Shown one piece after another: positions 1 through 16,831 of a DNA stretch of 32,000 bases. The notes under the pieces are model-generated. The model was not told the DNA's origin. It did not search any database and worked only from the letters and a program-made list of their open reading frames with translations. Source of the stretch: Paenibacillus tarimensis (GTDB lineage: Bacteria > Bacillota > Bacilli > Paenibacillales > Paenibacillaceae). The translations under genes and the position numbers were made by a program. Each line of letters opens with the position of its first letter. Position 1 is the stretch's first letter. The stretch is taken from NCBI RefSeq assembly GCF_021532315.1, contig NZ_JAKGAO010000007.1:140285-172284 (forward strand). Direction: 5' to 3'.

Positions 1-141
1 ATGAGAGATTCGGCGGACAGGAAGGCAATTGCGCCTTACCTGATTCCGGTGAAGGTGACGGTCAAGAATGCGGCAGAGCCGGATAACAAGCGCGGCTGGA
101 CTGAGGTGGAGGGATATATTACCGATGAAGCGATTCGTTAA
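1..141 (+). CDS. 3' end of an upstream CDS (partial, product unknown; probably the same minor-pilin operon)
   Basis: Frame +1 is open from base 1 to TAA at 139-141. It overlaps the ATG of the next pilin-like gene (125) by 17 nt, which is a typical operon junction. The 46 visible residues carry no recognisable motif. Confidence 0.45.
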   Translation: MRDSADRKAIAPYLIPVKVTVKNAAEPDNKRGWTEVEGYITDEAIR

Positions 142-673
142 CAGAGCGGCCGATGAGCGGGGGTTTACACTAATTGAGCTGATCGCGTCGCTCACGCTGT
201 TGTCGGTGGTGCTTGGTGTTATATACGGCTCTATTACCTTTGGAATCAATGCTTATAACAAGATTAGTATAGAAAACTCGCTTCGCGATGAAGGAGATTT
301 AATTATGTCCTCCATTATGACGGAGCTGTACACGTTTGGCCCGGATGAGCTTGAGCAGCTGGACGGAAGCGGGACGAAGATCGCGCTGCGGCTGAACGGG
401 AATCCGGGAGTGGAGCACCAGTTGTATATCGCGCCTAACGGGGAGAACAGAGGAGCGCTGTTTATCGAGGAAGCGGTCGGGCGCCGGGAAATCCCGGTTC
501 AGGCAGAGGTGGTCCCGGTTTCTGCTGAGGAACCCCGGGGTTCCAGTATCAAGCTGAGCTGCCCGGCGGGAGACGCCTGCAGCAGCGGACTGCTGGAAGT
601 CAGGCTGCTCCTGCGCCATATGCACGGGAATGAGCCTATGGAGCTGGAGCTGGTCAGCAAATTCGGTTTTTAG
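125..673 (+). CDS. Type IV pilus minor pilin / pseudopilin with prepilin-type N-terminal cleavage-methylation domain
   Basis: From the internal ATG at 125 the product begins MKRFVNRAADERG|FTLIELIASLTLLSVVLGVIYG. That is the class III signal: G-1, F+1, E+5, then a hydrophobic helix. The track ORF starting at 68 adds an unlikely 19-aa extension. The subtype (PilV/PilW/ComGF-like) cannot be resolved by eye. Confidence 0.8.
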   Translation: MKRFVNRAADERGFTLIELIASLTLLSVVLGVIYGSITFGINAYNKISIENSLRDEGDLIMSSIMTELYTFGPDELEQLDGSGTKIALRLNGNPGVEHQLYIAPNGENRGALFIEEAVGRREIPVQAEVVPVSAEEPRGSSIKLSCPAGDACSSGLLEVRLLLRHMHGNEPMELELVSKFGF

Positions 674-693
674 GGAGAACGGGGGAAAGGCTT

Positions 694-2454
694 TTGAGGC
701 GGTTGAGGGAAGAGGGAGGATCGGCCTTCCTGATGGTCATATTCATGATCCTGCTCTTCATGATGCTGGGCATGGCCGTGCTAAGCGCTAGTATCGGCGG
801 AGCTCACCGTACAGAGAAGAGTGAGGATAATGTGCAGAGTCTGCATCTCGCGGAAAAAGCGCTGAACGAAGCGGCGGCGCATATCGCTGCAGAATATAAT
901 GGCAAGGAAATGGCTATCCGGCCCGCTGAGCTGATGGCGGAGCTGCAGGATTTTGTCAAGGCATTCAACGACAGGGCTGTCGGTACGGACTTAGAAGGCG
1001 CAAGCGGCCTCATTGAGTCGATCGTTTATACAGGGGAGGATCTGCAAGCAGATGAGCAGAAGCTCGATTATTACCTGAGGGTGACGGCCAAGACGGAAGT
1101 GAATGGTTCAGTCCGGAGGCTGTCGCAGGAGATTGTGCTGGATACATTCCCGGATTTTCTGCGTTACGGGCTGGGATCGGAGGAAGGGGATGTGATCCTG
1201 AACGGCTCGCCATATCTGGCAGGCAATCTGTATGTGGGAGATGAGCTGAAGCTCAGCAGTATGGCCGGCTACCGGTATTTGGGCCAGGAGCTTGCTGTAC
1301 AATCGCAGTTCCCGTATCTGGCTCAGCAGGGAGGCCAATACGGCGAAGTCTATGTATCGGCAGTGGATCGAATCAAGCACCGTGAGGACCGGGTAAGCAT
1401 CTATGTGCCGCTGAGCGATCCTGCGCATATCACCCGTTATCTGCATAGCGAGCCGAGCCGTATCAAGCTGAAGGATAACAAGAAGTTTGTCTCCATTGAT
1501 GTGGAGCAGTCCTTCCTGGACAAGGCTGCCTTAACGGCCGGGGATGACCAGAATGTGCGGAACGAGCTGGCCTCCAGGTACGAGGGAAGTATGAAGAAGC
1601 AGGATAATATGCTGTCCATACTTAACGAACGGTTCAAGGAGGATGGCAACGGAGACGGCAGCCCGGACGGAGAGGGATGGCTAACGCCGCCGGTTATGCC
1701 TGAGCTTGCGGAGCCTACAATAGAGGATGAGGAGCGTTATGCGGCGGAGGTGCGCAATTTTGCGGCTAAGCTGGAGAGCTTGGCCAAGCCGGTAATCGTC
1801 GAAGGTCCGCTCAAGCTGGGCGATGATTACAAGCGCATCTATTACACAGATAAATCGGCGGGCAATTGGCTTATCGTGAACGGCGACCTGATTGTGGAAA
1901 ACTACGAAGACCAGTTCGTTACCATACGCGGCAACATCCTGGTGACAGGCGATATAATTATCAAGGGCAAGCTTGCGGTGGATGCGACCATGATCGGGCT
2001 CGGCAAAACAGAGGTTGTCGATGCACAGATCAGGGGGATTGGCGGCAAGCAGCTGCTGGTCCTGATCTCGAAGGGACCGGTCGATGTGTACCGTTATGAC
2101 GCATTTCAGCCTATTACAGAGGCCTACAGCAGGGAAGATGACTATACGCTGGATGCCTTCTTCTACACAGATGCTGAAGCGGAGCTGTACGGAGTAGGAT
2201 CGACCTTCTGGATGAATGGCGGCTTCTTTGCCCGCGGAGACATCACGATCAATGCAGTCTTAGGTTCGACAAAGGCGGTTGAGGGAGAGAGGTCCCTGCA
2301 GTTCGATGCCCGCAGCCAATCGGCGATACCTGGCGAACAGTCCCGATTTGTCATTGATTATAATCAAAATGTCTTCACAAGTCAGAGCACCGGCCTGCCG
2401 CGCGTCAAGAAGGTCAAGGTCACCATCGGCCGCAAGTGGCTGGAAAGCCAGTAA
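694..2454 (+). CDS. Large PilX-N-like pilus assembly / minor pilin-like protein (586 aa)
   Basis: TTG start at 694 follows the RBS GGGGGAAAGG. The N-terminus RRLREEGGSAFLMVIFMILLFMMLGMAVLSASIGG resembles the PilX_N/TadG/ComGG type hydrophobic segment (no E+5). The C-terminal part has repetitive beta-strand-like runs (NGDLIVEN...IRGNILVTGDIIIKGKLAVD). It sits immediately downstream of a prepilin-type gene. Confidence 0.6.
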   Translation: MRRLREEGGSAFLMVIFMILLFMMLGMAVLSASIGGAHRTEKSEDNVQSLHLAEKALNEAAAHIAAEYNGKEMAIRPAELMAELQDFVKAFNDRAVGTDLEGASGLIESIVYTGEDLQADEQKLDYYLRVTAKTEVNGSVRRLSQEIVLDTFPDFLRYGLGSEEGDVILNGSPYLAGNLYVGDELKLSSMAGYRYLGQELAVQSQFPYLAQQGGQYGEVYVSAVDRIKHREDRVSIYVPLSDPAHITRYLHSEPSRIKLKDNKKFVSIDVEQSFLDKAALTAGDDQNVRNELASRYEGSMKKQDNMLSILNERFKEDGNGDGSPDGEGWLTPPVMPELAEPTIEDEERYAAEVRNFAAKLESLAKPVIVEGPLKLGDDYKRIYYTDKSAGNWLIVNGDLIVENYEDQFVTIRGNILVTGDIIIKGKLAVDATMIGLGKTEVVDAQIRGIGGKQLLVLISKGPVDVYRYDAFQPITEAYSREDDYTLDAFFYTDAEAELYGVGSTFWMNGGFFARGDITINAVLGSTKAVEGERSLQFDARSQSAIPGEQSRFVIDYNQNVFTSQSTGLPRVKKVKVTIGRKWLESQ

Positions 2455-2460
2455 ACAGAT

Positions 2461-2497
2461 GAGAGCCAGCAGCTGCAGGGACGCGGCGCTGGTTCTC
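2461..2497 (+). terminator. Possible weak terminator hairpin after the minor-pilin operon
   Basis: GAGAGCCAGC (2461-2470) pairs with GCTGGTTCTC (2488-2497), including one G-U pair, across a 17-nt loop. It is followed by TTATTGG, which is a poor U-tract. Confidence 0.3.
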
Positions 2498-2679
2498 TTA
2501 TTGGCAGACGACCTGCCCGCAATTAAATGTATGCGTTTACAAAAAAGTGTCATTAGAGTACTTTGAAGTTCATAAAGTGTTAACAAAGCCGTTATATTCA
2601 ACATTTAATGCGTTGGCTCACTAGGAGGGTACGAAGTCCCAAGAGCATCCTGGAATATCCTTCAAAAGGAATAAATCTA

Positions 2680-2708
2680 TTGATTTTAATAGGTCTTTGT
2701 CTTATATT
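2680..2708 (+). promoter_or_regulatory. Candidate sigma-A promoter for the agr-like cassette
   Basis: TTGATT (2680-2685), a 17-nt spacer, then TATATT (2703-2708), about 120 nt upstream of the TTG start at 2827. This is a pattern match only. Confidence 0.3.
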
Positions 2709-2826
2709 CAAATCAGAGTAAAAGGACGAAATATTACCAGACGTTCTTAACAAGAAGTTGCTAATTTAATGATTAGCGGAGAAATCATCTATCTAGGGCA
2801 AGAAATCCTCGAGGGGACTGATAGAG

Positions 2827-3453
2827 TTGAGTTTTCTGGGGTTTATGTTTTTTTCCACAATTGAAGGCTTGGCAATCTATGCTTTTGCCCTCTATGTTTT
2901 CAGAATGGATCTTCGGAAGTATATATGGCATGTATTAACGATGATCTTACTCATTACATTTCAAAACTATATTACTAGGGATATGCTCGAACTCTCCCAG
3001 CTCTCCACAGTTGGCAACTTAATTGTAACAGCTTTATTCTTCAACACTATCATTAGAATCCCGATGATCTGGTCCTTAATTATGACAGTAACCGGGTTCA
3101 TAGGGCTAGGAATAATACAAACCCTAATCATATTCGGGTCCTTTGGATATTTTTCTATTGAAGAAGCAGCGGCACATGCATGGAAAACCTATACCATTCA
3201 AGGTGTTACCGGAGTTATCGGTTTTCTTATAGGTTGGGGGCTTTACAGGAAAAGACTTGGCTTTACTTTCGATTTCGACAATATAGTAATTAAAGGCGAG
3301 AGGCTTTTTGTCATTACGATTATCGGATTATTCATTCTTGCTTGGATCGGCATGGTATTATTTGAAAATGTTTATTTGAATCTATTTGGCCTGTTAATAG
3401 CCTTGTTGATCTTTCTGGTATATTCAATCAAGAAGGAATTGGCTGAACGATGA
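2827..3453 (+). CDS. Polytopic membrane protein (about 6-7 TM, 208 aa), no soluble domain; first gene of the agr-like cassette
   Basis: TTG start at 2827 lies 9 nt after GAGGGGA; an alternative ATG is at 2845. The protein is almost entirely hydrophobic helices (FLGFMFFSTIEGLAIYAFALYVF, IWHVLTMILLITF, MIWSLIMTVTGFIGLGIIQTLIIFG, LFVITIIGLFILAWIGMVLF, LFGLLIALLIFLVYSI). Its stop overlaps the agrB start as ATGA (3450-3453). The size and topology match the sensor module of AgrC-type kinases, but no HisKA or ATPase region follows. Confidence 0.7.
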   Translation: MSFLGFMFFSTIEGLAIYAFALYVFRMDLRKYIWHVLTMILLITFQNYITRDMLELSQLSTVGNLIVTALFFNTIIRIPMIWSLIMTVTGFIGLGIIQTLIIFGSFGYFSIEEAAAHAWKTYTIQGVTGVIGFLIGWGLYRKRLGFTFDFDNIVIKGERLFVITIIGLFILAWIGMVLFENVYLNLFGLLIALLIFLVYSIKKELAER

Positions 3454-3965
3454 CAATCTATGCTGTCTCTATGCGAATCGCTGAATCCATAAAGAAGGCG
3501 GCACCCGATCATCCCGCAAGTGTAGAGGTTCTACGGTATTCTGTTTCCTTTTTGATCAATACATTTTTAATCATATCGTTCACACTCTCAATTGCTTGTA
3601 TTACAGGGCGACTGACAGAAGCCTGCATATCCTTATTTTCCTTTGCTTTATTAAGGCAGGTTTCTGGAGGATATCATTTAGGCTCAGGTATGTGGTGTAT
3701 TCTGCTCTCTACCTTGCTATTAACCGGACTGACTTTCGTTGAATTCCAACCGCAGATCATAGATACTATGAATGTTGTTAGTGCGGTTCTTGTTTTAATT
3801 TATGCGCCATCTAGAATTGAGCGGCAAACCAGGATATCAGCCAAGCATTTTCCTGTACTAAAACTGGTATCATTCTGGATTGTAGCATTAAGTTTCTTAG
3901 CAGGAGATTCAGTCTTAACTGCTACCTTGTTCGTTCAATCCCTATCATTGATAAGAAGACTATAA
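3450..3965 (+). CDS. agrB: AgrB-family accessory gene regulator B (AgrD-processing membrane cysteine peptidase)
   Basis: A 171-aa membrane protein carrying the AgrB signature LRQVSGGYHLGSGMWC. His76 (CAT 3675-3677) and Cys83 (TGT 3696-3698) are 7 residues apart, matching the catalytic H77/C84 pair of S. aureus AgrB. An AgrD-like ORF follows immediately. Confidence 0.85.
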   Translation: MTIYAVSMRIAESIKKAAPDHPASVEVLRYSVSFLINTFLIISFTLSIACITGRLTEACISLFSFALLRQVSGGYHLGSGMWCILLSTLLLTGLTFVEFQPQIIDTMNVVSAVLVLIYAPSRIERQTRISAKHFPVLKLVSFWIVALSFLAGDSVLTATLFVQSLSLIRRL

Positions 3966-3981
3966 GGGAGAGGTGAAGCCT

Positions 3982-4104
3982 GTGAAAAGTAAAGTTTTTT
4001 ACAGACTTGCGACAATCTTAGCTGCTCTTGCAGTTGCAGTTGTATCGTCAGCTAGCTGGATGTACTTTCACCAAGACGAAACGCCGGAAGAATTGCTGAA
4101 ATAA
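3982..4104 (+). CDS. agrD: AgrD-like cyclic (lactone) autoinducing peptide precursor, 40 aa (absent from the ORF track)
   Basis: GTG at 3982 follows the RBS AAGGGAGAGGTG. Translation: VKSKVFYRLATILAALAVAVVSSASWMYFHQDETPEELLK. It has an N-terminal amphipathic/hydrophobic helix, a central S-W-M-Y-F, and an acidic tail with Pro 6 residues after the Phe plus an EL motif. This is the same layout as S. aureus AgrD (CDFIM|DEVEVPKEL). It lies directly 3' of agrB. Confidence 0.7.
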   Translation: MKSKVFYRLATILAALAVAVVSSASWMYFHQDETPEELLK

Positions 4105-4127
4105 TTATGGCGGGGATGGGTTAAATC

Positions 4128-4508
4128 ATGCTTTTGTCTCTGACTCATGACATTGACGGAAAATCTGGATTTGTTCATGTCGAAGCGGACGATCTCTTGT
4201 ACATATCCTATGACAGCATGACTAACCGTGTATCGTTCCACACCTTAGACGACGAATACTTCGCCATGGGCACGCTGAAGTACTTTATTGAGACGTTCCT
4301 TCACTCGGGTTATGTCTTCGATAAGGTTGACCGCAACAATGCGGTTAATATGCAGAAAATTACGCTGGTCGACGAAAGGATGGGTCTCGTTTACTTTGAT
4401 GAAAGACCCGACCGAAGATCCAAGAAATGCACAGTAGCGGTTTCCAACTTCAAGAATATTATGCTTAAGCTGAAGTCCTTCAACCCGGATATCGCTGTAC
4501 TGCGCTAA
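4128..4508 (+). CDS. Stand-alone LytTR DNA-binding domain protein (AgrA C-terminal-domain-like, no receiver domain)
   Basis: The 126-aa product aligns by eye with the AgrA LytTR domain. VHVEADDLLYISYDS matches VYVQYDDIMFFESST. MGTLKYF matches YGNLKEL. NAVNMQKITLVDERMGLVYF matches FVVNRHNIESIDSKERIVYF. KCTVAVSNFKNI matches HCYASVRNVKKI. Only about 14 residues precede the domain, and only 23 nt separate the gene from agrD, so there is no room for a receiver domain. Confidence 0.85.
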   Translation: MLLSLTHDIDGKSGFVHVEADDLLYISYDSMTNRVSFHTLDDEYFAMGTLKYFIETFLHSGYVFDKVDRNNAVNMQKITLVDERMGLVYFDERPDRRSKKCTVAVSNFKNIMLKLKSFNPDIAVLR

Positions 4509-4513
4509 GAGAT

Positions 4514-4553
4514 AACAGGTACTGCCTGAGTAGGCGGTACCTGTTTCTTTTTA
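4514..4553 (+). terminator. Rho-independent terminator ending the agr-like cassette
   Basis: AACAGGTACTGCC (4514-4526) pairs with GGCGGTACCTGTT (4533-4545) as a 13-bp stem with one G-U pair. TCTTTTTAT follows. Confidence 0.7.
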
Positions 4554-4661
4554 TGGTCCGTTACATGAATTCTATCTGCTGTAAACTCGCAACCTTTGCG
4601 GATTTTCGTCGTCTAATAGGTGGCTGGATGAATATGTAAAAGATTGTGGGATGGTGATGAA

Positions 4662-6161
4662 ATGATCAGGAAGTTAAGGGTATTGGTCATCTGTTGGATC
4701 GCTTTCTGTCTAATTCTTACGGGACAAGCGTCACTGGCGCAGGCGAAGCCGGGGTCAGAGCCAGCATCGGCATCAATTGTGCTGAACGGAGCGAAGCTTG
4801 AGATGCTGCCGGGTGTCACCATCCCGATCGTAAGCGGCAATGTTATGATTCCGATCCGTATGGTTGTGCAGGGACTAGGTTATGAGGTGAAGTGGCAGCG
4901 GAATGAGCAGAAGGTGACGGTGTTTGCGTCAGGCAAGACCATTGAGATGACGATCCGAAGTGAAGAGGCATTGGTGGACGGAGCGGCCAAACGTATGGCG
5001 GCTGCGCCGATAGTAATCTCGGGTACTTCATATATTCCTCTGCGGTTTGTCGGGGAGGAGTTAGGTCTTAGGGTAGGCTGGGATAACAAGAGCAAGACGG
5101 TGTCGCTTGATACGGTAATGCCTGCAGAACCGGAGTTGGATCTACCGACTCATGATCCGGCGGTACCGGCAGCTCCGGGGGTGCCGGGCGGTGCGGCTCC
5201 TGTACAGGTAGAGGCGATCAGCTATGCGGATAACCGGTTGACCGTGTACACCAGCGCAGCGGTAGAGCCGAAGATCTTTACAATGACAGGTCCGGACCGG
5301 ATCATTATGGATATATCCAATGCGGTATTTTCCGCTTCGCTTGCGCAATCGGTCGGGACCGGCGGACAGGGAGAAATCGCTGTAAATGATGCTTATGTGA
5401 ACCGGATTCGTTATTCCGTATTCTCTAAAGACCCGGCAGCCGTCCGTATTGTTATAGATACCGCGCAGGTTATCCCTTATGAGGTGCTCAAAGGGCAGGA
5501 AGGCGGCTCTTACATCGTTATCGACCTGAATGCAGGTATAGCTAGCGCACCCGCTCAGCCGATTGGCCAGGATGGGAAGAAGCTGGTCGTTATTGATCCG
5601 GGTCATGGAGGCTCTGATCCTGGTGCGGCAAGTGTATCGGGCAGGAGGGAGAAGGACTTTACCTTATCGTTATCGCACAAGGTTGCTGAGCTGCTGTCGG
5701 CGGAGCCGGGCGTTGATGTCATTATGACCCGCAGCGATGATACGTATGTAGAGCTCGGCAGCCGCGGGACTATGGCTAACGCGCTTCGTGCCGATTTATT
5801 TCTATCTATACACGGCAATTCTTTTCCGCAAAACCCCTCGGTCAGGGGGACAGAGACTTATTACTACAATGAAGCTTGCAGGCCATTCGCCGAGCTGATG
5901 CACAGGCATCTATTGGGAGCAGCGGGTTTCCCCGACCGCAAGGTGAAGAGCAAGAGTCTGAAGGTGCTGCGGGATGCGACTATGGATGCCCTGCTGCTCG
6001 AAATCGGCTTCCTCTCGAACTCGGCGGAGGAGGCGGTCATGTTCGATGAGTCCTTCCAGTGGCGTGTTGCTCAGGCTATTGTGGCAGGAATCATGGAGCA
6101 GCTGCAGATGCGGCAGGAACAGGAACCGCTGCAGGAGCAGATGCCGCTGCCAGGGATGTAA
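4662..6161 (+). CDS. N-acetylmuramoyl-L-alanine amidase (Amidase_3) with N-terminal copper-amine-oxidase-like stalk domain and central AMIN-like domain
   Basis: ATG at 4662 gives the signal peptide MIRKLRVLVICWIAFCLILTGQASLAQA. A Cu_amine_oxidN1-like repeat follows (VMIPIRMVVQGLGYEVKWQ...SYIPLRFVGEELGLRVGWD). Next come a Pro-rich linker and an AMIN-like segment (LTVYTSAAVEPKIFTMTGPDRIIMDISNAVF...VNRIRYSVFSKDPAAVRIVID). The catalytic motifs VIDPGHGGSDPGA, LFLSIHGNS and GTETYYY are present. Confidence 0.9.
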   Translation: MIRKLRVLVICWIAFCLILTGQASLAQAKPGSEPASASIVLNGAKLEMLPGVTIPIVSGNVMIPIRMVVQGLGYEVKWQRNEQKVTVFASGKTIEMTIRSEEALVDGAAKRMAAAPIVISGTSYIPLRFVGEELGLRVGWDNKSKTVSLDTVMPAEPELDLPTHDPAVPAAPGVPGGAAPVQVEAISYADNRLTVYTSAAVEPKIFTMTGPDRIIMDISNAVFSASLAQSVGTGGQGEIAVNDAYVNRIRYSVFSKDPAAVRIVIDTAQVIPYEVLKGQEGGSYIVIDLNAGIASAPAQPIGQDGKKLVVIDPGHGGSDPGAASVSGRREKDFTLSLSHKVAELLSAEPGVDVIMTRSDDTYVELGSRGTMANALRADLFLSIHGNSFPQNPSVRGTETYYYNEACRPFAELMHRHLLGAAGFPDRKVKSKSLKVLRDATMDALLLEIGFLSNSAEEAVMFDESFQWRVAQAIVAGIMEQLQMRQEQEPLQEQMPLPGM

Positions 6162-6175
6162 GGGGTCAAAATCAA

Positions 6176-6207
6176 ACAGGGAAGCGGATGCACTGCCCCT
6201 TCCCTGT
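6176..6207. terminator. Hairpin between convergent amidase and sspH genes (probable shared terminator)
   Basis: ACAGGGAAG (6176-6184) pairs with CTTCCCTGT (6199-6207). On the minus strand it is followed by TGATTTTG. Confidence 0.5.
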
Positions 6208-6223
6208 TGTGGCGTTGCTTCAC

Positions 6224-6403
6224 TTACTGTTCGGTCAGGCTGCGCAGCGGCACGCTCTGTTCGGCCTGAGGCTGATCCAGCGGAAAAATTCTCGCTGTCT
6301 CGGTTTCCTCGTCCACATGCTGGATGTATACCTGTTGTCCGTTATAGGTCACATTAGCCATTACGGGGGAGGCAGCAATTTCCTGGGCACGATAGATGTC
6401 CAT
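6224..6403 (-). CDS. sspH: Small acid-soluble spore protein, H-type
   Basis: From the internal ATG (6403) the 59-aa product is MDIYRAQEIAASPVMANVTYNGQQVYIQHVDEETETARIFPLDQPQAEQSVPLRSLTEQ. This matches the SspH pattern (M.I.RA.EI..SP....V.Y.G..VYI.HV.E...TA...PLD.P). The RBS GGAAGGG lies 9 nt upstream. The 27-aa N-terminal extension in the track is rejected. Confidence 0.75.
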   Translation of the reverse strand: MDIYRAQEIAASPVMANVTYNGQQVYIQHVDEETETARIFPLDQPQAEQSVPLRSLTEQ

Positions 6404-6435
6404 TCTGTTATTCCCTTCCATATGGAGTATTGGCA

Positions 6436-6465
6436 TAATGTGCGCGAATCGCAGCGTAAATATAC
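6436..6465 (-). promoter_or_regulatory. Candidate forespore sigma-G/F-type promoter of sspH
   Basis: On the minus strand, GTATA (6465-6461) is followed by an 18-nt spacer and CACATTA (6442-6436). This approximates the sigma-G consensus GNATR-N17-18-CATNNTA with one mismatch. Confidence 0.3.
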
Positions 6466-6508
6466 TGGCTCCTGCAATTATCATGAACTCATTTCCTTGG
6501 GGCAGCAG

Positions 6509-6556
6509 AAAAATAACGCCATCCTTGGCCTATCGGCTTGGGATGGCGTTATTTTT
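6509..6556 (-). terminator. Strong rho-independent terminator of the 1431-aa gene (symmetrical, could act in both directions)
   Basis: AAAAATAACGCCATCC (6509-6524) pairs with GGATGGCGTTATTTTT (6541-6556) as perfect 16-nt arms that include A/T runs on both sides. It lies 20 nt downstream of the minus-strand stop at 6576. Confidence 0.75.
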
Positions 6557-6575
6557 GTAAGCTCATGATGGTTTA

Positions 6576-9500
6576 TCAGTACACATCACCGCTGTACAAC
6601 GGTTCAACTTTCACTATCATACTGGCCCGGATTTCCGGTCTTGAAGCATCGGGACGATAGATAGCCGTAATGATGGTTGAGCCCCGCTTTAGACCAGTAA
6701 TTATGCCTGAATTTGTAAGACTTACAATACCGGAATCACTGCTGAGCCACTTGACCCCGGGCAGAATGCGGCTGCGCATGGATGCTGGAAGCACCTGCAG
6801 ATCCGGCCCCAGAGAATGGCTGCTTCCTTGTGTGATCGTTCGGCTTGCCGGCAGGCGAAGCCGGATGACGGTGCCCTCATACTCAGCTCTGAAGGCAGCG
6901 CCAGATGTCGTCTGAATATGGACAACAACGGTTACGCTCCCGGCATCATTGCCGGTCAAGCTGGCTGTTTGAGGGTCGGCAGGCGGGCTGCTTAGTGAAG
7001 CGGTCCGCGCAGCTTCCCCTTCCTTCAACGTCCATCTGATGCTTTGAATGCTGCCTGGCGGCAGAGGACTGCCTTGCCACTCCAGCCCCAGATTAATCGT
7101 CTCTCCTATGCCAAATGCATCATGCCCGGTAATGCGGACGCTGCGGTCGTTAATGACAACTGTATGCTCGGCTGTAATTTGGTCACCGGATGCAAGAACG
7201 CCGGTAACAACTACGGTTACGCTGCCGGCTTCCACTGCTTTTAATGTACTTTCCAGCCTTTCAGTGCCGGACGTCAGCCTGGCCTTGGAGGCATCCGAAA
7301 GTCCCTTTAAGGACCAGGTGACGGACTGCACCATAGCAGCTGGCAGCATAACTGGGTTTCCTTCCGTATCGATCCATTCCGCGCGAAGCCCGATCTGCTC
7401 GCCCTTGCCGGTCTCGGACGGACCGGCGATCCGCAGTCGGGGATTGACGATTGTGACGCTGTGCTCGTCAGAGTAGGTATGCTTCACAGCGCCGGTGGCG
7501 AGATCATAGGTCGTTGCCTGAACGACGACTGTTACGGTACCGGCCTTCGTGCCGGTCAGTTTGCGATCCCAGACACTACCGCTGTCCGCCTCGGCAATCG
7601 CCGCTTTCGTGCTGTCTGCCTCGTTCTTGAAGCTCCAAGTTACCGAATCAGCCTGAATCGTCTCATTCGCTGTTTGTCTTAGTACGGCCTGCAGCGGCAG
7701 GGCAGAGCCTACCGTCACGGTATTGCCGCCATTAATGCTAAGGCCTGTCTTCACGACATTTATGGCTGCTTGCGCGGTCAGGCCGCTTACAGCATCCCGT
7801 ACGGTTACGATAGCTGTACCGGGTGCGATGCCTTTCACAGTCCCGATCTCATTGATCTCGAGTACGCTGCGGTTGCTGGACTCCCAGGTGAAGATGGGAG
7901 AAGTAGCGTCTGCCGGACTGTATGAAGGATGCAGCGGCAATTCTTCGCCAACAGCTATCTCTGAGCCTGCGAGCGACAGCTTGTCGATCATCGTGATGGC
8001 CTGGAAGCTCAGGGGCTGGAAAGGAACGGTGATCGTTTGGGTCTCGCCAATATCCCGGAAGGACACCCGCGATTGATCCAATGTATAGTTGCCGTTGTTG
8101 ACGGCTCTAATGCCGACTTCGAAGCGGATCGGTTCAGCCGTGTACATGCTGCCGTCCTCCGAGAGTTGGTATGTTACATCGGGCAGAGTGCCGCTGATTG
8201 TATAGCCGGAATCTATACTCCCGGAGGTGCTCATCCATGAAGGCAGAGTGGTTATCTCAATGCCCTTAGGCATGGTCTCGCGGAAGGAGACTTGATGGAT
8301 GACAAGCTTATGCGGCTCCGTTGTAGAGTGTGCAGGTATGGGCATAGGCGTCAGCTGATAGTGCACGGTCAGCGGATCACCTTTTTCGGCCACCGGGCTT
8401 CCATTGCCGTCCGCACTTTCTCTCAGGCCTGACATGTGCCGGCTGACGGTAAGATTGGTTTCGATCTTCTTGATCTTGACCGGCACTTCCTTGATGGTCT
8501 TGGCTCCTTTCTTATCGCGCGCAATCACCTCTACGGTTAGATCGCCGCCTTGGGGCAGCGGATTCGTGAATGTCTGGGTCACGGTGGAGCCTGATAAGAC
8601 ATCCGCCTGCTGATACTTGCGCACAATTTGCCCGTTGTATTTGAAGTTAACCTCAACATATACGCGTGGGTCGGCCAAATCCCAGTCCTCAGGCTTGAAG
8701 CTTACTGCGATTCTCTGATAAGACGGAATATAATTGTCTTCCAGTTCCGTATAGGGGCGCGGCGTGAAGACAGTCAGCTTCGGCGCATGGTTCGAGCCGA
8801 TGAACGCCCGGTACATAGTATTGACGAACAGCTTTTCTTCCCAGTCGGGAAACGGGTCCGATAAGTAGCTGGTCTGGCTGTTCAGGAAGACGTGCCCGCT
8901 GCCCGAATAAGTGACATTGCCTTTGGAATACGTGTAGTAATGATTCCAGCTGTCATTAGGGTCCCGGCTTCCGCCCGAAATGTTATACCAGCTGATAATA
9001 CTGTCATCCTCCAGATCGAGGGTGAAATATTGATTGTGCGTTCTGGCAACCGAAGTGGCTGCATGGCTGATATTGAACGGATATTGCGTGAGCAGCCCAT
9101 CATTGACCTTTACGGTAGTCGTCGATGTCCTGGGGGCGGTTAGTCCCAGGTTGGTCTGTGTTCCCCTCTGCCCGGTCGTATCCTGGAAGTAGCGAATCCA
9201 GTTATTGTTGTCTCCAAAGACGGTGTCATGTGTGAACATAACGGCCTGGCCGGTGCCGATGAATGCGTTAACGGCTTCCGCCGCGGCATCGCTAATGCCG
9301 GAATAACGGTTGTATTCGTCGATAAATCCGAAGATCAGCATATCGTACCGGCCGTTCAATTCCCGATACCCGCCGCTGTTAAATTTGTTAAACTCCGTCA
9401 CGTCGATATGAATCTCAAATTCGCCCGCCTTCTTCAAGTAGGACTGCTTCAGTGTGGCGTCCCGCTGCAGGGAGCTGAACAGCTTGCCGTTTGGCATGAC

Positions 9501-10871
9501 CTGCAGCACGTTAACGACGGTCGTCTCATCCTTGAAGCGGATCACACCGCTCTGAAAATCCTTAAGCCTGCTGTTCTGGTCCACAAGCTCCAGCTTCCAA
9601 TAGTGGACACCGGAATAGCCCTTGGGCAGACGGTAGGTCAATTCGCCTTCTGGCCCGGTTACGGGTGTGGATGCTACCATCTGGTCGGGTGTGAACCGCA
9701 GCACCTGGTCCAATCCGATATACAGGTTGGCTGTTAGCCTCCGCTGGCTGAAGTCGGGGATATTGGCGGCGTTAAACTTGAAGGTGAGCGTATTGCCTGT
9801 GCTGTGAATGTAATCAGGATTCACGTTGTAATCAATGGGCCGCTCGCTTAGGACCAGCTTGGGCCGCTGCCGCAGGATTCGGCTATAGTTGTCCTCAGTC
9901 AACAGGCCGGCCAGACGGATGAGCCTGTCCTCGTTAATAAACAGAACATTGTCCCGGGCTTCTGAAGGCTTGCTGAAACGGCTGAACGTATTATAGAGCT
10001 TGCCCTTCTGTGGACTCTGGTAGAGAAGGCCGCTGCGCTGACCCGCATCACTGTAAAACATGACCAGCAGACCTTTATTAATATAATGCTGAATGATCTC
10101 ATTGGCCTTAAGCTGGGTGATGTCGTTCATTACATTCCGGGTATCATGCCAGCTCTCCCGGTTGGAAGAAGTTGTGACCGGAACAGTCTCCGGATTATAG
10201 CTGCCTTTGCCGATATAGATAGCATCATATTTGCCGTCCAGATCCCCGCGGAGTGCGACGAACCGTTTCATGCTCATTGTCTCTACCTCAATATAAGGGA
10301 CGGGACTGAGAATGGTTTGAATATCGGAGCTCCCGGTGTCAGTAATCTCCAGAATCTTGACGGGATGGTGCTCGGTCAGCTTGAAGCCGGTACATGCCCC
10401 GGCTGAGGTTTTGCTGGCGGCAAGCGGATAGGTGGTGCTGTCTAGCGACTTGTCCGCGCACACATATTTATTTTTGGAATCGATAAGGGATACCGTACCG
10501 TCTGTGTGATGGACTAGTGTGAACTGTTCCCGGGCTCCTATACTCGATGCAGCAGCTGTAAGCCGGCTTGAAGTGGAACTGACGCTCACATATTTGCCGT
10601 TACTCTCGGACTTTAGGGCAATACTGCCGCTGCTTAGCATGCTGAGTTCAAAAAGCTCGGCTGCCGCAGCATCCGTTGTGCTGGTGGATACGGCTGCTCC
10701 GTTACTGGTTATGGTTACGTATTTGGCGTTTATCTTCGCTTGAAGGGAGACAAGCTTACCTGTCCCGGCATGCACCTGACGCTCGCCAATTCCTGTGACT
10801 GCAAAGGCTGTGAAAATCATGCTGAGCGCAACTAGAAGGGTAAGCGGACGGTTGAACGTTCTTCTTCTCAT
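6576..10871 (-). CDS. Large secreted multidomain protein (1431 aa): signal peptide, beta-trefoil (fascin/ricin-like) module, two alpha/beta modules (DUF5057/ThuA-like by recollection), Ig-like region, five C-terminal Big_2-type Ig repeats
   Basis: The start is set at ATG 10871, preceded by AGGAGG at 6-nt spacing. The signal peptide is MRRRTFNRPLTLLVALSMIFTAFAVTGIGERQVHA. A threefold NGKYV/NKYV repeat pattern follows (AKYVTITSNG, NGKYVSVSS, KNKYVCADK). Two similar modules are present (KILEITD...LDGKYDAIYIG and VNVLQVMPNG...LNGRYDMLIFGF...GQAVMFTHDT). The C-terminal ~475 aa (nt ~6576-8005) form five ~95-aa repeats with Big_2 hallmarks (e.g. SNRSVLEINEIGTVKGIAPGTAIVTVRD; SSDSGIVSLTNSGIITGLKRGSTIITA). 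No LPXTG, SLH or choline-binding anchor is seen. Confidence 0.85.
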   Translation of the reverse strand: MRRRTFNRPLTLLVALSMIFTAFAVTGIGERQVHAGTGKLVSLQAKINAKYVTITSNGAAVSTSTTDAAAAELFELSMLSSGSIALKSESNGKYVSVSSTSSRLTAAASSIGAREQFTLVHHTDGTVSLIDSKNKYVCADKSLDSTTYPLAASKTSAGACTGFKLTEHHPVKILEITDTGSSDIQTILSPVPYIEVETMSMKRFVALRGDLDGKYDAIYIGKGSYNPETVPVTTSSNRESWHDTRNVMNDITQLKANEIIQHYINKGLLVMFYSDAGQRSGLLYQSPQKGKLYNTFSRFSKPSEARDNVLFINEDRLIRLAGLLTEDNYSRILRQRPKLVLSERPIDYNVNPDYIHSTGNTLTFKFNAANIPDFSQRRLTANLYIGLDQVLRFTPDQMVASTPVTGPEGELTYRLPKGYSGVHYWKLELVDQNSRLKDFQSGVIRFKDETTVVNVLQVMPNGKLFSSLQRDATLKQSYLKKAGEFEIHIDVTEFNKFNSGGYRELNGRYDMLIFGFIDEYNRYSGISDAAAEAVNAFIGTGQAVMFTHDTVFGDNNNWIRYFQDTTGQRGTQTNLGLTAPRTSTTTVKVNDGLLTQYPFNISHAATSVARTHNQYFTLDLEDDSIISWYNISGGSRDPNDSWNHYYTYSKGNVTYSGSGHVFLNSQTSYLSDPFPDWEEKLFVNTMYRAFIGSNHAPKLTVFTPRPYTELEDNYIPSYQRIAVSFKPEDWDLADPRVYVEVNFKYNGQIVRKYQQADVLSGSTVTQTFTNPLPQGGDLTVEVIARDKKGAKTIKEVPVKIKKIETNLTVSRHMSGLRESADGNGSPVAEKGDPLTVHYQLTPMPIPAHSTTEPHKLVIHQVSFRETMPKGIEITTLPSWMSTSGSIDSGYTISGTLPDVTYQLSEDGSMYTAEPIRFEVGIRAVNNGNYTLDQSRVSFRDIGETQTITVPFQPLSFQAITMIDKLSLAGSEIAVGEELPLHPSYSPADATSPIFTWESSNRSVLEINEIGTVKGIAPGTAIVTVRDAVSGLTAQAAINVVKTGLSINGGNTVTVGSALPLQAVLRQTANETIQADSVTWSFKNEADSTKAAIAEADSGSVWDRKLTGTKAGTVTVVVQATTYDLATGAVKHTYSDEHSVTIVNPRLRIAGPSETGKGEQIGLRAEWIDTEGNPVMLPAAMVQSVTWSLKGLSDASKARLTSGTERLESTLKAVEAGSVTVVVTGVLASGDQITAEHTVVINDRSVRITGHDAFGIGETINLGLEWQGSPLPPGSIQSIRWTLKEGEAARTASLSSPPADPQTASLTGNDAGSVTVVVHIQTTSGAAFRAEYEGTVIRLRLPASRTITQGSSHSLGPDLQVLPASMRSRILPGVKWLSSDSGIVSLTNSGIITGLKRGSTIITAIYRPDASRPEIRASMIVKVEPLYSGDVY

Positions 10872-11035
10872 GGAGTGCCTCCTATTTCGGATATCTCTAT
10901 GATAACGAATTCCAATATGCATAGACATAGTATAAAAGGACTAATAATAGGTGTATATACTCACGTGCTTGTAATATGGCTGTAAGAATTGTCGAAGACA
11001 AATTAAGATACAATATTTTTGGTTATTGTCTTGTC

Positions 11036-11244: not shown

Positions 11245-12909
11245 ATGGCCATCGTGAAGAAAAGGCTGGGCGACCTTCTGGTGGAGAGCCGGATTATTTC
11301 GCAGGAGCAGCTGCAGGAAGCACTGGCAGAGCAGAGCAAGTCGAAGCAGAAGCTGGGTGACCTGCTCATAACCCAAGGCTACATAACGGAGCAGCAGCTG
11401 ATCGAGGTACTGGAATTTCAGCTGGGCATTCCGCATGTCAGCTTATACAAATATCAGATAGATCCTACGATTACTCAGATTATTCCGGAGAGCTTGGCGC
11501 GGCGTTATCAAGCAATACCGTTTCATAAGGAAGGCGGCAAGCTGATGGTCGCGATGGCGGACCCTCTGGATTATTTTGCCATTGAGGAGCTCCGCATGAG
11601 CACAGGGTTCAGAATTGAACCCGCTATCTCAAGCAAGGATGAGCTTCAGCGCGCCATAGCACGTCACTACGGCCTGCAGGATTCCATGAGCCAGATGATG
11701 GTCGAGCTTCCCAATCAGGAAGAGATCCGGGAGACGGAGATTACAGATGAGGACTCTCCTGTCGTGAGGCTGGTTAACCAGATGATTCAGCAGGCTGTGC
11801 AGCTGCAGGTTTCTGACATTCATGTGGACCCGGGGGAAGCCAATGTCGCTATCCGCTACCGGGTTGACGGCGTGCTTCGCACCGAGCGGATGATTCCAAA
11901 ACAGATGCAGGGCTTTATTACTGCACGGCTCAAGATTATGGCGAGACTGAATATTGCGGAGCGGAGACTGCCGCAGGATGGTCGGATTAAGATGCAGGTG
12001 GATTACAGGACAGTCGATATTCGGGTATCGACACTTCCTACCATCCATGGTGAGAAAATCGTGCTCCGGATTCTTGATCTGAGCATCGGTGTGAAGGCGC
12101 TGGATCACCTAGGCTTCGGTTCACGTAATCATCAAGCGTTCAAGAGCATGATCGAGAAGCCGTACGGCATCATTCTCATCACAGGACCCACAGGCAGCGG
12201 CAAGACGACTACGCTTTATTCGGCGCTGCATCACCTGAATCAGGAAGGTGTCAATATCATGACGCTGGAGGACCCGGTGGAGTACCAGCTGGAAGGGATT
12301 AACCAGGTGCATGTAAACCCGGGAATCGGACTTACTTTTGCCGCAGGGCTACGCTCGATACTGAGACAGGACCCGAATATCGTGATGGTCGGTGAAATCC
12401 GTGATACAGAAACGGCCGAGATGGCGATCCGGGCTTCGCTTACAGGGCATCTTGTATTATCTACACTGCATACGAATGATTCGATCAGCACCGTTACGCG
12501 TTTCCGTGACATGGGGGTCGAAACCTACCTGATCGCTTCTTCACTGGTAGGCGTTGTAGCCCAGCGGCTTGTCCGACGGATTTGTCCGGACTGCAAGACT
12601 GCCTATGAGCCTAGTGAGCAGGAAGCTATTTATATGAAGAGCCGCGGAATCACAGCTGACAAGCTGTACAAGGGAACCGGCTGCGGCAACTGCAACAAGA
12701 CAGGCTACCGCGGACGGCTTGCTGTCCATGAAGTGCTGGTTGTAGATGACCGGCTGAGGCAGCTGATTGCACAAGGAGCGACAATTCAGGAGCTCCGGGA
12801 GGAAGCAAAGGCGGCTGGCATGGTTCAGCTTATGGATGATGGTCTGGAGAAGGTGAAGCTTGGCGCGACAACACTGCAGGAAGTGCTGCGCGAGACGGTA
12901 TCAAATTGA
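11245..12909 (+). CDS. pilB: Type IV pilus assembly (extension) ATPase PilB (GspE family)
   Basis: An N-terminal MshEN/T2SSE_N-like repeat is present (LGDLLVESRIISQEQLQEAL...LGDLLITQGYITEQQL). So are Walker A GPTGSGKTTT, Asp box LEDPVEY, Walker B ILRQDPNIVMVGEIRD, His box TGHLVLSTLHTND and the tetracysteine motif CPDC...CGNC. Confidence 0.92.
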   Translation: MAIVKKRLGDLLVESRIISQEQLQEALAEQSKSKQKLGDLLITQGYITEQQLIEVLEFQLGIPHVSLYKYQIDPTITQIIPESLARRYQAIPFHKEGGKLMVAMADPLDYFAIEELRMSTGFRIEPAISSKDELQRAIARHYGLQDSMSQMMVELPNQEEIRETEITDEDSPVVRLVNQMIQQAVQLQVSDIHVDPGEANVAIRYRVDGVLRTERMIPKQMQGFITARLKIMARLNIAERRLPQDGRIKMQVDYRTVDIRVSTLPTIHGEKIVLRILDLSIGVKALDHLGFGSRNHQAFKSMIEKPYGIILITGPTGSGKTTTLYSALHHLNQEGVNIMTLEDPVEYQLEGINQVHVNPGIGLTFAAGLRSILRQDPNIVMVGEIRDTETAEMAIRASLTGHLVLSTLHTNDSISTVTRFRDMGVETYLIASSLVGVVAQRLVRRICPDCKTAYEPSEQEAIYMKSRGITADKLYKGTGCGNCNKTGYRGRLAVHEVLVVDDRLRQLIAQGATIQELREEAKAAGMVQLMDDGLEKVKLGATTLQEVLRETVSN

Positions 12910-12925
12910 CAGCGGAGGAGAAGGT

Positions 12926-14008
12926 ATGCCTCATTACATCGATGAAATAGCCGGGGGACAACAAGAAGACAGGGAGCGGTTGACAGCTCTGCTGCTAGCT
13001 GTGCATGAGGCAGGGGCATCCGACCTGCATCTGGCGGCCGGGTCGCCTCCAGTCATGCGTCGGCACGGGCAGCTTCAGCGAATAGGGCAGCAGCCGCTGA
13101 CAGCTGAGGCAATCAGCGGAATAGCGAGGGGGCTGCTTGAAGGGAAGCAGTGGGAACGATTTTGGGAGCTTGGAGAGATGGACTTTGCCTGGAAGCTTGA
13201 AGGTATATCCAGGTACAGGGTTATTGCCTACCTGCAGCGCGGACAGGTCAGCTTGGCGATCCGGACTATCCCGTTGGATATCCCTACACTGAGCTCCCTT
13301 GGCCTGCCCCCCGTTGTGGAGACGTTAGCTGGGAAGCCGCACGGACTGGTGTTGGTGACCGGCCCGACAGGCAGCGGCAAATCATCAACACTGGCAGCGA
13401 TGATCGACCATATTAACGGTACTCAGAAGAAGCATATCGTAACACTTGAGGATCCGGTGGAGTTCGTGCATCCGAACCGGTTGTCACTGATCCAGCAGCG
13501 TGAGGTGGGTCAGGATACCGGCAGCTTTGCCAGCGGACTGCGGGCTGCATTGAGGCAGGACCCGGATGTCATTCTTGTCGGAGAGATGCGTGATCCGGAA
13601 ACTATAGGGGCTGCGGTTACGGCGGCCGAAACCGGACATCTGGTGCTCGCAACGCTGCATACAACGGATGCGCCGCAGACAATTGACCGGATCATTGATG
13701 CTTTCCCGGCAGAGCAGCAGGCTCAGGTTCGAGGGCAGCTGGCAGCTGTACTGGCGGGGGTTATATCCCAGCGGCTGCTTCCCCGCCCGGATGGGTCAGG
13801 CCGCTGCTGTGCAGTCGAAATTATGATTAACACCCCGGCAGTCGCCAACCTGATTCGCACCGAGAAGAATCATCAGATTCGCAATGTGCTCCAGACAGGG
13901 CGGGCACAAGGAATGATTACGCTCGATATGTCCGTGCAGGAGCTTCTCCGGCAAGGCCTGGTTGAACCCATGGCCGCTAAGGCCTGCCTGACGGAAGGAG
14001 CGGTCTGA
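12926..14008 (+). CDS. pilT: Type IV pilus retraction (twitching motility) ATPase PilT
   Basis: ATG at 12926 follows GGAGGAG; the track start at 12860 lies inside pilB and is rejected. The 360-aa product has GPTGSGKSST, LEDPVEF, LRQDPDVILVGEMRD and TGHLVLATLHTTDA. It also has the PilT-type C-terminal motif AVANLIRTEKNHQIRN (compare AIRNLIREgK). Confidence 0.9.
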   Translation: MPHYIDEIAGGQQEDRERLTALLLAVHEAGASDLHLAAGSPPVMRRHGQLQRIGQQPLTAEAISGIARGLLEGKQWERFWELGEMDFAWKLEGISRYRVIAYLQRGQVSLAIRTIPLDIPTLSSLGLPPVVETLAGKPHGLVLVTGPTGSGKSSTLAAMIDHINGTQKKHIVTLEDPVEFVHPNRLSLIQQREVGQDTGSFASGLRAALRQDPDVILVGEMRDPETIGAAVTAAETGHLVLATLHTTDAPQTIDRIIDAFPAEQQAQVRGQLAAVLAGVISQRLLPRPDGSGRCCAVEIMINTPAVANLIRTEKNHQIRNVLQTGRAQGMITLDMSVQELLRQGLVEPMAAKACLTEGAV

Positions 14009-15216
14009 TGCCGGAGTTTGCCTATCACGTCAAGAGTGCTAGCGGCAAGCAGCTCAAGGGGCGAATGTCTGCTATGGACAAGTCGTCTGCGGTGGAGGAG
14101 CTGCGTAAGCGCGGACTTATCGTACTGTCACTTGATGAGAAGCGGAAGACGCTGCTGTCGACGGAGATTTATATCGGCAACCCGGTCAAGCCGCAGCATT
14201 TTATTATCTTTTGCCGGCAGCTCGCCACCTTGATCCGCGCAGGCGTTACGATCGTAGAAGCTTCCAGCATATTGGCCAGCCAGACAGAGAGTAAGCCGCT
14301 GAAGAAGGCGCTAATCGAAGTTCATGCCGGTCTGATGCGTGGTCATGCCTTCTCGCAGACCGTGCAGGAGCAGAAGAAGATTTTCCCGGCCATCTTTACG
14401 AGTATGATACGCGCTGGTGAGGAGACGGGTGATCTGGATGGGACGCTGGACAGGCTGGCGCGGTTCTTCGAGAAGCAGCATGCCACCCGGGAGAAAATCA
14501 AGTCAGCCCTCACCTACCCGATTGTTGTTGGTGTGCTAGCGCTCGCTGCGGTTGTGTACCTGCTGATTTCGGTTGTGCCGCAGTTTGTCCAGATGTTCGA
14601 GTCAATGGATGCAGAGCTGCCCGCGATAACGAAGCTGGTTCTCTCGCTCAGCAACAGTGTTGTCGATTACTGGTACTACTGGGTACTGACGGCAGTGGCA
14701 TTGCTCTCGGGCCTGTTGTTGATGAAGCGGAGCGACAAGGGGGCTTACTGGCTGGATTATGCCAAGCTGAAGATTCCGGTATTTGGCAAGCTGGCCCAGA
14801 AGGGCGCAATCGCGCAGATGTCTCGGACCCTTGCGTCGCTCTACGCGAGCTCGGTCCCGGTTCTGCAGTCGCTTGCGATTGTTGAGGAAGTGGTTGGCAA
14901 CAAGGTGATGGGACGCTATATCAGGCGTTCCGCTGATTCTCTTCGGCGGGGAAATCCGTTATCTGATCCGCTGAAGCAGGCTTGGGTATTCCCGCCGCTT
15001 GTGACCCAGATGATTGCGATTGGCGAGGAAACAGGCTCGCTCGACCAGATGCTGGCGAAAGTAGCGGACTTCTACGAGGCGGATGTGGACAACACCGTTG
15101 ACCGGCTGAAATCACTGATCGAGCCGCTGCTGCTGGTCTTCCTGGCGGGAGTCGTCGGCCTGATCGTCGCCGCCGTTATGCTGCCGATGTTCAGCATGTA
15201 CGAGCAGATGAGCTAG
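14008..15216 (+). CDS. pilC: Type IV pilus platform protein PilC (GspF family)
   Basis: A 402-aa protein with two GspF-type repeats (FCRQLATLIRAGVTIVEAS...; MSRTLASLYASSVPVLQSL...) and three TM segments. Its ATG overlaps the pilT stop (TGATG). Confidence 0.9.
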   Translation: MPEFAYHVKSASGKQLKGRMSAMDKSSAVEELRKRGLIVLSLDEKRKTLLSTEIYIGNPVKPQHFIIFCRQLATLIRAGVTIVEASSILASQTESKPLKKALIEVHAGLMRGHAFSQTVQEQKKIFPAIFTSMIRAGEETGDLDGTLDRLARFFEKQHATREKIKSALTYPIVVGVLALAAVVYLLISVVPQFVQMFESMDAELPAITKLVLSLSNSVVDYWYYWVLTAVALLSGLLLMKRSDKGAYWLDYAKLKIPVFGKLAQKGAIAQMSRTLASLYASSVPVLQSLAIVEEVVGNKVMGRYIRRSADSLRRGNPLSDPLKQAWVFPPLVTQMIAIGEETGSLDQMLAKVADFYEADVDNTVDRLKSLIEPLLLVFLAGVVGLIVAAVMLPMFSMYEQMS

Positions 15217-15329
15217 CAGAGCGGCGCGGGGCAGGGCAGGAATAGGAATTGTAACATGGATTGGAAGTATGAATTCGTTTGGACCGGACTTATAAGTCTG
15301 TTCAATTATATAAGAGAGGAAGATTTAAT

Positions 15330-16040: not shown

Positions 16041-16054
16041 AACCTAGGAAAGAG

Positions 16055-16825: not shown

Positions 16826-16831
16826 CGGGAT

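Follow-up and report, generated by a model that had tools for sequence, protein, structure and literature searches.

A conserved and mobile agr-type cassette of Paenibacillus and its phages that lacks histidine kinase and receiver domain

Canonical agr, encoded by agrBDCA, is the usual textbook case of a peptide signal being sensed by a histidine kinase. A different arrangement is found in the LytTR regulatory systems (LRS), in which a receiver-less LytTR regulator is co-transcribed with a membrane inhibitor and is autoregulated through direct repeats, the hallmark elements being 9 base pairs (bp) long, separated by an 11-13 bp spacer, and located about 10 bp upstream of the -35 element; the membrane gene follows that of the regulator, and neither a ligand nor, for any of the more than 4600 predicted LRS operons, a signal is known (Zou et al. 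2018, PMC6193735). The same study lists LRS with unrelated membrane proteins and predicts further uncharacterised varieties. Another small regulator, BlpS of Streptococcus gallolyticus, has 108 residues with a LytTR domain only and represses by competing with BlpR for a shared operator (PMC8545106). For phages, Hargreaves et al. (2014, PMC3901668) reported agr-like genes in the Brevibacillus phages Davies, Emery, and Abouo, with a passing mention of AgrB, AgrD, and kinase-less "AgrC-like" membrane proteins lacking HATPase_C and with the LytTR partner unrecognised, and a 2025 review describes phage agr cassettes as lacking a response regulator (PMC11945551). Here we analysed a stretch of 32,000 nucleotides (nt) from Paenibacillus tarimensis (assembly GCF_021532315.1, contig NZ_JAKGAO010000007.1, positions 140,285 to 172,284; the whole stretch is called the window below), which contains a cassette of four genes encoding a transmembrane (TM) protein, AgrB, AgrD, and a LytTR-only protein. 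The cassette is best read as the union of an agr producer with a receiver of the LRS type, and the best-supported interpretation of its gene content, judging from sequence, is that the seven-helix TM protein and the LytTR-only protein jointly replace AgrC and AgrA.

The six-frame list of open reading frames (ORFs), taken together with the sequence, placed the four ORFs tightly packed on the plus strand at window positions 2827-4508 (Table 1). The TGA stop of the TM gene overlaps the ATG of agrB at 3450 (ATGA), and 23 nt separate the end of agrD from the start of the LytTR gene. The cassette is AT-rich, with a guanine-plus-cytosine (GC) fraction of 0.37-0.45 against 0.52-0.59 in its flanks, and this copy is chromosomal and outside any prophage. 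A 100% protein match identified the source as P. tarimensis. The original prediction, made from the letters of the window, had described an AgrBD producer module coupled with a membrane protein and a protein of LytTR domain only, without kinase or receiver, laid out as four packed genes followed by a terminator, with the AgrB His/Cys pair at a 7-residue spacing, a 40-residue AgrD-like precursor, and a 126-residue protein consisting essentially of a LytTR domain. All of these points were borne out by the ORF list, the terminator stem with its T run, and the Pfam and NCBIfam matches given below.

Table 1. Features of the cassette and its upstream region, in window coordinates
Feature	Position	Strand	Basis or comment
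Conserved 62-bp upstream block, candidate operator/promoter element	2524-2585	+	58 of 62 bases the same in P. sambharensis
Allele-replacement (hypervariable) block: promoter region, TM gene, agrB, agrD leader and ring	2586-4050	+	Compared with P. sambharensis (locus L007) 4761-6233
Sigma-70-like promoter, TTGATT-17-TATATT	2680-2708	+	Consensus scan; predicted
TM gene, 208 residues	2827-3453	+	TTG start, GAGGGG before start; proposed peptide receptor/LytTR partner
agrB, 171 residues, AgrD-processing cysteine endopeptidase	3450-3965	+	PF04647
agrD, 40-residue precursor	3982-4104	+	TIGR04223
LytTR-only DNA-binding protein, 126 residues	4128-4508	+	PF04397
Intrinsic terminator closing the operon	4514-4553	+	14-pair stem 4514-4545 with 7 GC pairs, then T run

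The signal-producing half of the cassette was clearly of the agr type. AgrB matched PF04647 with an E-value of 3e-18, and its translation contains His76 and Cys83, seven residues apart, within a GGYHLGSGMWC motif that is retained in the homologues. AgrD matched TIGR04223, the AgrD family cyclic lactone autoinducer, with an E-value of 1.8e-9. The longest agrD ORF begins at GTG 3973; because this codon lies within the GGGAGAGG Shine-Dalgarno and because the homologues are 39-40 residues long, GTG 3982 was taken as the start, yielding a precursor of 40 residues. The predicted ring is a 5-residue lactone, S-W-M-Y-F, followed by the C-terminal recognition tail HQDETPEELLK. The serine sits 10 residues ahead of the proline of PEEL(LK), and the same spacing was found in 36 homologous cassettes, among which ring residues 2-5 vary widely while the Ser/Cys nucleophile and the PEELL tail are fixed. 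The cassette thus shares with agrBDCA the AgrB His/Cys pair and an AgrD with amphipathic leader, 5-residue ring, and acidic P-E-E-L tail. It differs from agrBDCA in its gene order, TM-B-D-LytTR, and in the ring nucleophile, which is serine (lactone) in 34 of the 36 cassettes and cysteine in the other two.

The output protein likewise resembles that of agr, reduced to its DNA-binding part. It matched PF04397 at 25.9 bits (cut-off 22.6) over residues 15-112 of 126, and no receiver domain was found in it with Pfam. In a Foldseek search with its AlphaFold2 (AF2) model, which had a predicted local distance difference test score (pLDDT) of 92.9, the best matches were the LytTR domains of Staphylococcus aureus AgrA (target-normalised TM-score 0.79-0.83), followed by ComE and a Bacillus cereus LytTR domain, making the AgrA LytTR domains its closest solved relatives; the LytTR-family profile also matched AgrA with an E-value of 1e-7. 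The family-invariant Arg69 aligned with Asn201 of AgrA, which we take, following the 3BS1 work, to be a DNA-contacting residue. Compared with the AgrA domain, the LytTR-only protein is longer by a single C-terminal helix (105-118). BlpS is comparable as a small protein that is essentially a LytTR domain only, but it is encoded together with the BlpRH two-component system (PMC8545106), and no such system accompanies the cassette. As a side observation, the exact LytTR protein of the window was not returned from a collection of 5.8 billion proteins, in which the best match was 90% identical; the public annotation of P. tarimensis may lack the gene or give it a different start.

The TM protein matched no Pfam or NCBIfam family, and no Pfam domain was found in 22 diverse members of its family, so that the original prediction's concern that it might belong to an unrelated, well-characterised family found no support. 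A word-indexed search gave 10 matches, and the family therefore looked rare at first, but when 1.84 billion representatives were searched exhaustively with a profile, 461 clusters (50% identity) came up at E ≤ 0.001. The best 150 of the 461 clusters were all 88-242 residues long and are therefore stand-alone proteins. The AF2 model (pLDDT 74) has seven TM helices. Read against this model, Lys and Arg are concentrated in two loops, 25-31 and 141-159, and in the C-terminal tail, which points to an outside N-terminus and an inside C-terminus. Among 187 members of the family, variability was highest in the outer loops 105-121 and 180-181, and conserved positions were found on the cytoplasmic side at F25-R26, G145-F146-x-F148, and K203-E204, along with an FSxIE motif in TM helix 1. 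The difference between the two faces was modest, with an entropy of 2.68 for the outer and 2.51 for the inner face (p 0.03). This topology and pattern of conservation fit a receptor. Met7 was considered as the true start of the protein and was dropped, as it is kept in close relatives only.

Relative to agrBDCA, then, the cassette has no HPK10 kinase (HATPase_c_5), no receiver domain, and in place of AgrC a separate membrane protein of 208 residues that showed no similarity to the single AgrC used for comparison. Relative to the LRS exemplified by HdrRM and BrsRM, it shares a receiver-less LytTR regulator co-encoded with a polytopic membrane protein in the absence of a kinase and, as in an LRS operon, the pair sits between one promoter region and one terminator; the two genes are adjacent in about 60 loci. 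Unlike the LRS, which have no signal-producing genes, it includes the signal genes agrB and agrD and, when 22 members were compared by Pfam family, the TM protein shared none with HdrM (DUF2154). The original prediction had called for the TM protein to be checked for kinase remnants and for similarity to AgrC sensor modules or to HdrM/BrsM. Kinase remnants were absent by Pfam, and no match was obtained to the one AgrC sensor compared or to the LRS membrane proteins covered by Pfam.

The same gene set was by no means restricted to P. tarimensis. The TM/LytTR-only pair was found in about 60 loci, consisting of 45 genome loci, 13 viral contigs, one plasmid, and one phage, and because it recurs across all of these settings the four-gene arrangement is far beyond chance. 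The genome scan, which took one genome per species and used a narrower alignment of the TM family, recovered loci that were nearly all from Paenibacillus, several genomes having two or three copies. A survey of the neighbourhoods with hidden Markov models, following up the proposed gene order, found it complete in most of the 45 genome loci, with flanks unrelated from locus to locus. Four close relatives had the order TM-AgrB-AgrD-LytTR with LytTR proteins of 123-130 residues, each with different flanks, and many species and phages retain the architecture even where identity has fallen to 27-35%.

Departures from this arrangement were informative as to which genes belong together. Three loci, in P. 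wynnii (L027), a Paenibacillus metagenome-assembled genome (L032), and P. tepidiphilus (L036), had TM and LytTR genes alone, 37-64 nt apart, and four others (L016, L039, L040, and L046) had TM-AgrD-LytTR without AgrB. For the latter, AgrB may act in trans, since P. pinihumi holds a complete cassette elsewhere (L006) besides its AgrB-less one. The agrB gene was fragmented in four loci (L010, L017, L021, and L025). One relative with 27% identity had the order LytTR-TM-AgrB-AgrD, and in another distant relative (27-30% identity range) LytTR and TM genes were divergently transcribed and accompanied by a 31-codon ORF and no AgrB. The TM-LytTR pair is therefore the constant core of the cassette, outlasting both the loss of agrB or agrD and changes of gene order.

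Some members of the family raised points of their own. The solo TM-LytTR pairs of L027, L032, and L036 are possible eavesdropping receptors, analogous to LuxR solos. In P. pinihumi, and in this relative only, an extra ORF of 132 residues with no recorded Pfam match lies directly upstream of the TM gene (L003 1523-1921). On a 235-kb plasmid of Bacillus thuringiensis israelensis (L057 3968-4841), a TM homologue of 240 residues (identity 30%) overlaps a downstream ORF of 52 codons, the product of which would begin like a signal peptide and end in SGISWWWE, and neither an AgrB nor a LytTR gene was found near the homologue. The TM receptor family may be paired at this locus with a different kind of peptide.

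Phosphotransfer genes were sought both in the window and beside the relatives. Scanning 20 long ORFs (at least 150 residues) of the 32-kb window revealed neither a histidine kinase nor a response regulator; the scan excluded one 1450-residue ORF. In every locus, the LytTR ORFs found with a broad LytTR profile were at most 147 residues long, and all 38 distinct LytTR partners matched LytTR only, with no receiver domain. HATPase_c was present in only 2 of 53 flanking ORFs of AgrC size, among which no family recurred, and a phmmer search with the kinase half of the AgrC of phiCDHM1 matched one ORF in about 50 loci. No kinase recurred next to the cassette across the approximately 60 loci. With no agrCA pair recurring beside the relatives, the window copy is not a strain-specific agrCA deletion, an explanation that the original prediction had kept in view.

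A comparison with P. sambharensis (L007), which carries the cassette at the same chromosomal site, revealed how its parts vary. The flanks aligned by blastn at 87% (window 1-2585) and 80-81% (4051-8461, with 81% over 4051-6465), and within the intervening block the only match was a weak one of 174 nt. At the protein level, identities were 49% for TM, 52% for AgrB, 75% for AgrD, and 90% for LytTR, and the predicted rings were SWMYF in the window versus SWVYV in P. sambharensis. As in agr, the enzyme that processes the peptide, the peptide itself, and the membrane component all fall in the hypervariable block, and the DNA-binding part is conserved. Judged at this level, the block swap resembles the hypervariable region of staphylococcal agr, the TM protein standing where the AgrC sensor would be, and it looks like agr-type specificity groups arising by recombination.

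Similar patterns were seen across the family. TM and LytTR identities were correlated over all locus pairs (r = 0.84). For the 18 pairs with LytTR identity of at least 80%, the shortfall of TM identity below LytTR identity was larger the more the rings differed (Spearman 0.58, nominal p 0.012), the mean excess TM divergence being about 4 points for 0-1 ring differences, 17 for 2, and 19-23 for 3-4. As locus pairs are not independent, this trend of co-diversification between the TM protein and the ring is suggestive only.

The cassette is mobile: besides the chromosomal copies, there is one on a plasmid, and temperate phages carry it in their lysogeny regions. The Paenibacillus plasmid pHD02 carries the same four genes, annotated one by one by RefSeq. 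A relative was found on 13 IMG/VR viral contigs, 12 of which had the full gene order, and in L002 the cassette lies between phage lysis genes and an integrase. In Brevibacillus phage Davies (L059 26243-28658, gp44-gp48), it lies between the integrase and repressor/Cro-type regulators, with gp44 and gp45 as two TM-family paralogues (hhalign E 2e-17 and 1e-21), gp46 as AgrB, gp47 as an AgrD-like peptide, and gp48 as a 121-residue protein that matched PF04397 over the full domain at 16.9 bits, under the Pfam cut-off. In PHROGs, three proteins of the window were grouped with phage ones (phrog_15604, which the TM protein matches, phrog_10353, and phrog_15081), and gp48 was grouped with the window's LytTR protein in phrog_15081, the 'peptidase' label of which is probably wrong. 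The agr-like genes of Davies, Emery, and Abouo are thus of the same cassette type, with phage copies there and a chromosomal copy in the window, and phage agr cassettes encode their own LytTR output protein. This fills a gap, given that such cassettes have been said to lack a response regulator (PMC11945551). The position of the cassette in phage Davies is reminiscent of phage arbitrium systems.

Upstream of the four genes, the conserved 62-bp block contains two copies of AAAGTGT(C/T)A at 2544 and 2574, 30 bp apart, and the sequence on both sides of it diverges from P. sambharensis; the block is a putative LytTR binding site. In P. sambharensis, the predicted promoter TTGATT-17-TATATT was the sole promoter-like site that the replaced block retained. 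Relatives of one large subgroup share TATACG-N18-TATAAT, and a poor -35 of this kind is typical of activator-dependent promoters.

Based on these data, we lean towards reading the cassette as a self-contained module for cyclic-peptide quorum sensing that operates without a phosphorelay, in which the TM protein would receive the peptide and act directly on the LytTR protein, much as in an LRS. In its boldest form, a serious possibility rather than the expected outcome, a stand-alone seven-helix receptor would bind the cyclic lactone peptide and pass the signal to the LytTR protein by direct contact, which would make this the first LRS with an identified ligand. By homology, AgrB would cyclise AgrD and release a serine-lactone autoinducing peptide (AIP) with the ring SWMYF. 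The seven-helix protein would then stand in for the AgrC sensor and recognise the peptide with its variable outer face, and its conserved cytoplasmic loops (FR 25-26, GFTF 145-148, and the KKE tail) would touch the LytTR-only protein directly. By analogy with HdrRM and BrsRM, the membrane protein would most likely hold the LytTR protein inactive until the peptide binds, with either release or capture conceivable as the sign of the control. Once freed, the LytTR protein would bind DNA, probably the cassette's own upstream region, and activate transcription. Comparative genomics supports the pairing of the two proteins and a role for the TM protein in specificity, and from this we infer the physical mechanism. 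Since temperate phages of Brevibacillus and Paenibacillus hold the cassette in their lysogeny regions, the phage-borne form may double as an arbitrium-like communication system.

Several observations weigh against this interpretation. The contacts that the TM protein would make with the peptide and with the LytTR protein are deduced from gene context and co-diversification, and co-diversification of the TM protein with AgrD is what a dedicated exporter or processing factor would show too. Sensing of the peptide could instead lie with a distant AgrC/AgrA-type pair, the kinase scan having covered the window. The TM protein has no relative among the solved structures in the PDB, and when its family profile was aligned by hhalign with the AgrC sensor of phiCDHM1, the single AgrC compared, the probability was 0.1%, with no match by phmmer either; as a control, this AgrC scored PF14501 with an E-value of 4e-26. 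AgrC sensor domains are hypervariable. The order of the genes, with TM first and LytTR last in most members, is the reverse of that in the LRS of Streptococcus mutans. Nor did the upstream regions show what an LRS would lead one to look for. Direct repeats of the LRS 9-12-9 type were not found, with no excess at 20-22 bp spacing over 38 upstream regions, and no operator motif common to the loci emerged, a scan with AARTGTYRA giving no enrichment. A repeat spaced by 21 bp, AGAAATCATC/AGAAATCCTC at 2780/2801, was considered as a LytTR operator and rejected as a probable chance occurrence, as it is unconserved in P. sambharensis and located beside the ribosome-binding site.

The translational coupling of the TM gene to agrB and its location, along with agrB and agrD, within a single swapped block would also suit a TM protein that is an accessory to the making or handling of the peptide, whether as an MroQ-like leader protease, an exporter, or an immunity or anchoring protein, with a kinase elsewhere sensing the peptide and the LytTR protein acting as an independent regulator. 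AIP biosynthesis in S. aureus does require a second membrane protease, MroQ (PMC9388083). We consider such an accessory role unlikely. TM-LytTR pairs persist without agrB and agrD in L027, L032, L036, and L053, where a biosynthetic helper would be without a substrate. Against an MroQ-like protease in particular, Pfam revealed no CPBP/Abi domain (PF02517), nor a match of any other kind, in the TM protein, and histidine was missing from the columns recorded as invariant, or close to it, in 22 diverse members. Moreover, the agrBD genes of P. polymyxa alone give mature AIP in B. subtilis, at a locus not established as being of the same type (PMC12180512).

The precedent of BlpS, introduced above, suggests a different role for the output protein, namely that of an antagonist competing for the operator of a full-length AgrA-type regulator encoded elsewhere, with the TM protein serving as a kinase-less, AgrC-like decoy. 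This appears improbable, given that BlpS is encoded in an operon with its two-component system whereas no kinase or receiver-LytTR protein recurs within 5 kb of the cassette across the approximately 60 loci, and that the cassette travels whole between hosts on phages and a plasmid, which favours self-sufficiency over dependence on a partner. It would be more surprising still, and we regard it as very improbable, if the TM protein were a small permease importing the peptide for the LytTR protein to bind in the cytoplasm, after the logic of the RRNPP regulators. Small seven-helix facilitators do exist, and peptide sensing by import is common in the Bacillota, but the 126-residue protein is nearly all LytTR fold plus one extra helix and so has no obvious room for a ligand-binding domain, and no convincing match to transporter structures was obtained for the TM model (best E > 1, TM-score < 0.3). 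Finally, the reading of the cassette as a non-functional remnant of agrBDCA, to which the fragmented agrB genes of L010, L017, L021, and L025 might point, is effectively refuted by conservation, as the original prediction had anticipated in excluding decay: the four reading frames are intact and tightly packed with no space for domain remnants, and the architecture is kept to 27-35% identity in many species and phages with unrelated flanks, short LytTR ORFs, and hardly any HATPase_c domains beside it.

We found no description of a system joining AgrBD, a LytTR-only protein, and a membrane protein in the literature searched, subscription-only literature being outside its scope, and the study of the P. 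polymyxa AIP names no receptor (PMC12180512). The claim of novelty in the original prediction was slightly overstated in that kinase-less "AgrC-like" proteins of phages had already been noted (PMC3901668). The existence of a conserved, mobile version without either phosphotransfer protein challenges the textbook agr mechanism and, if the proposal is true, a non-kinase receptor reads the AIP. For the LRS, the cassette offers a candidate ligand that is encoded in the same operon, so the question of what such systems sense becomes directly testable with synthetic peptides. This result may also be of use in synthetic biology, where a part of only four genes with dozens of natural ring variants could provide orthogonal signalling channels.

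The remaining genes of the window include those for type IV pilus proteins, an amidase, cytochrome c oxidase, and ABC transporters, and no Rfam family or tRNA was detected in it by Rfam and tRNA scans. The 1450-residue ORF lies on the minus strand at 6576-10928, just downstream of the amidase gene. Type IV pilus genes are found on both sides of the cassette (1-2454 and 11245-18987), and the GC content of the cassette is about 15 points below that of these surrounding genes. Upstream, they comprise a prepilin-type protein with an N_methyl motif next to an unassigned ORF of 586 residues, and downstream the domain matches were to a PilB/PilT-type ATPase, a PilC-type platform protein, a prepilin peptidase, PilM, and PilO.

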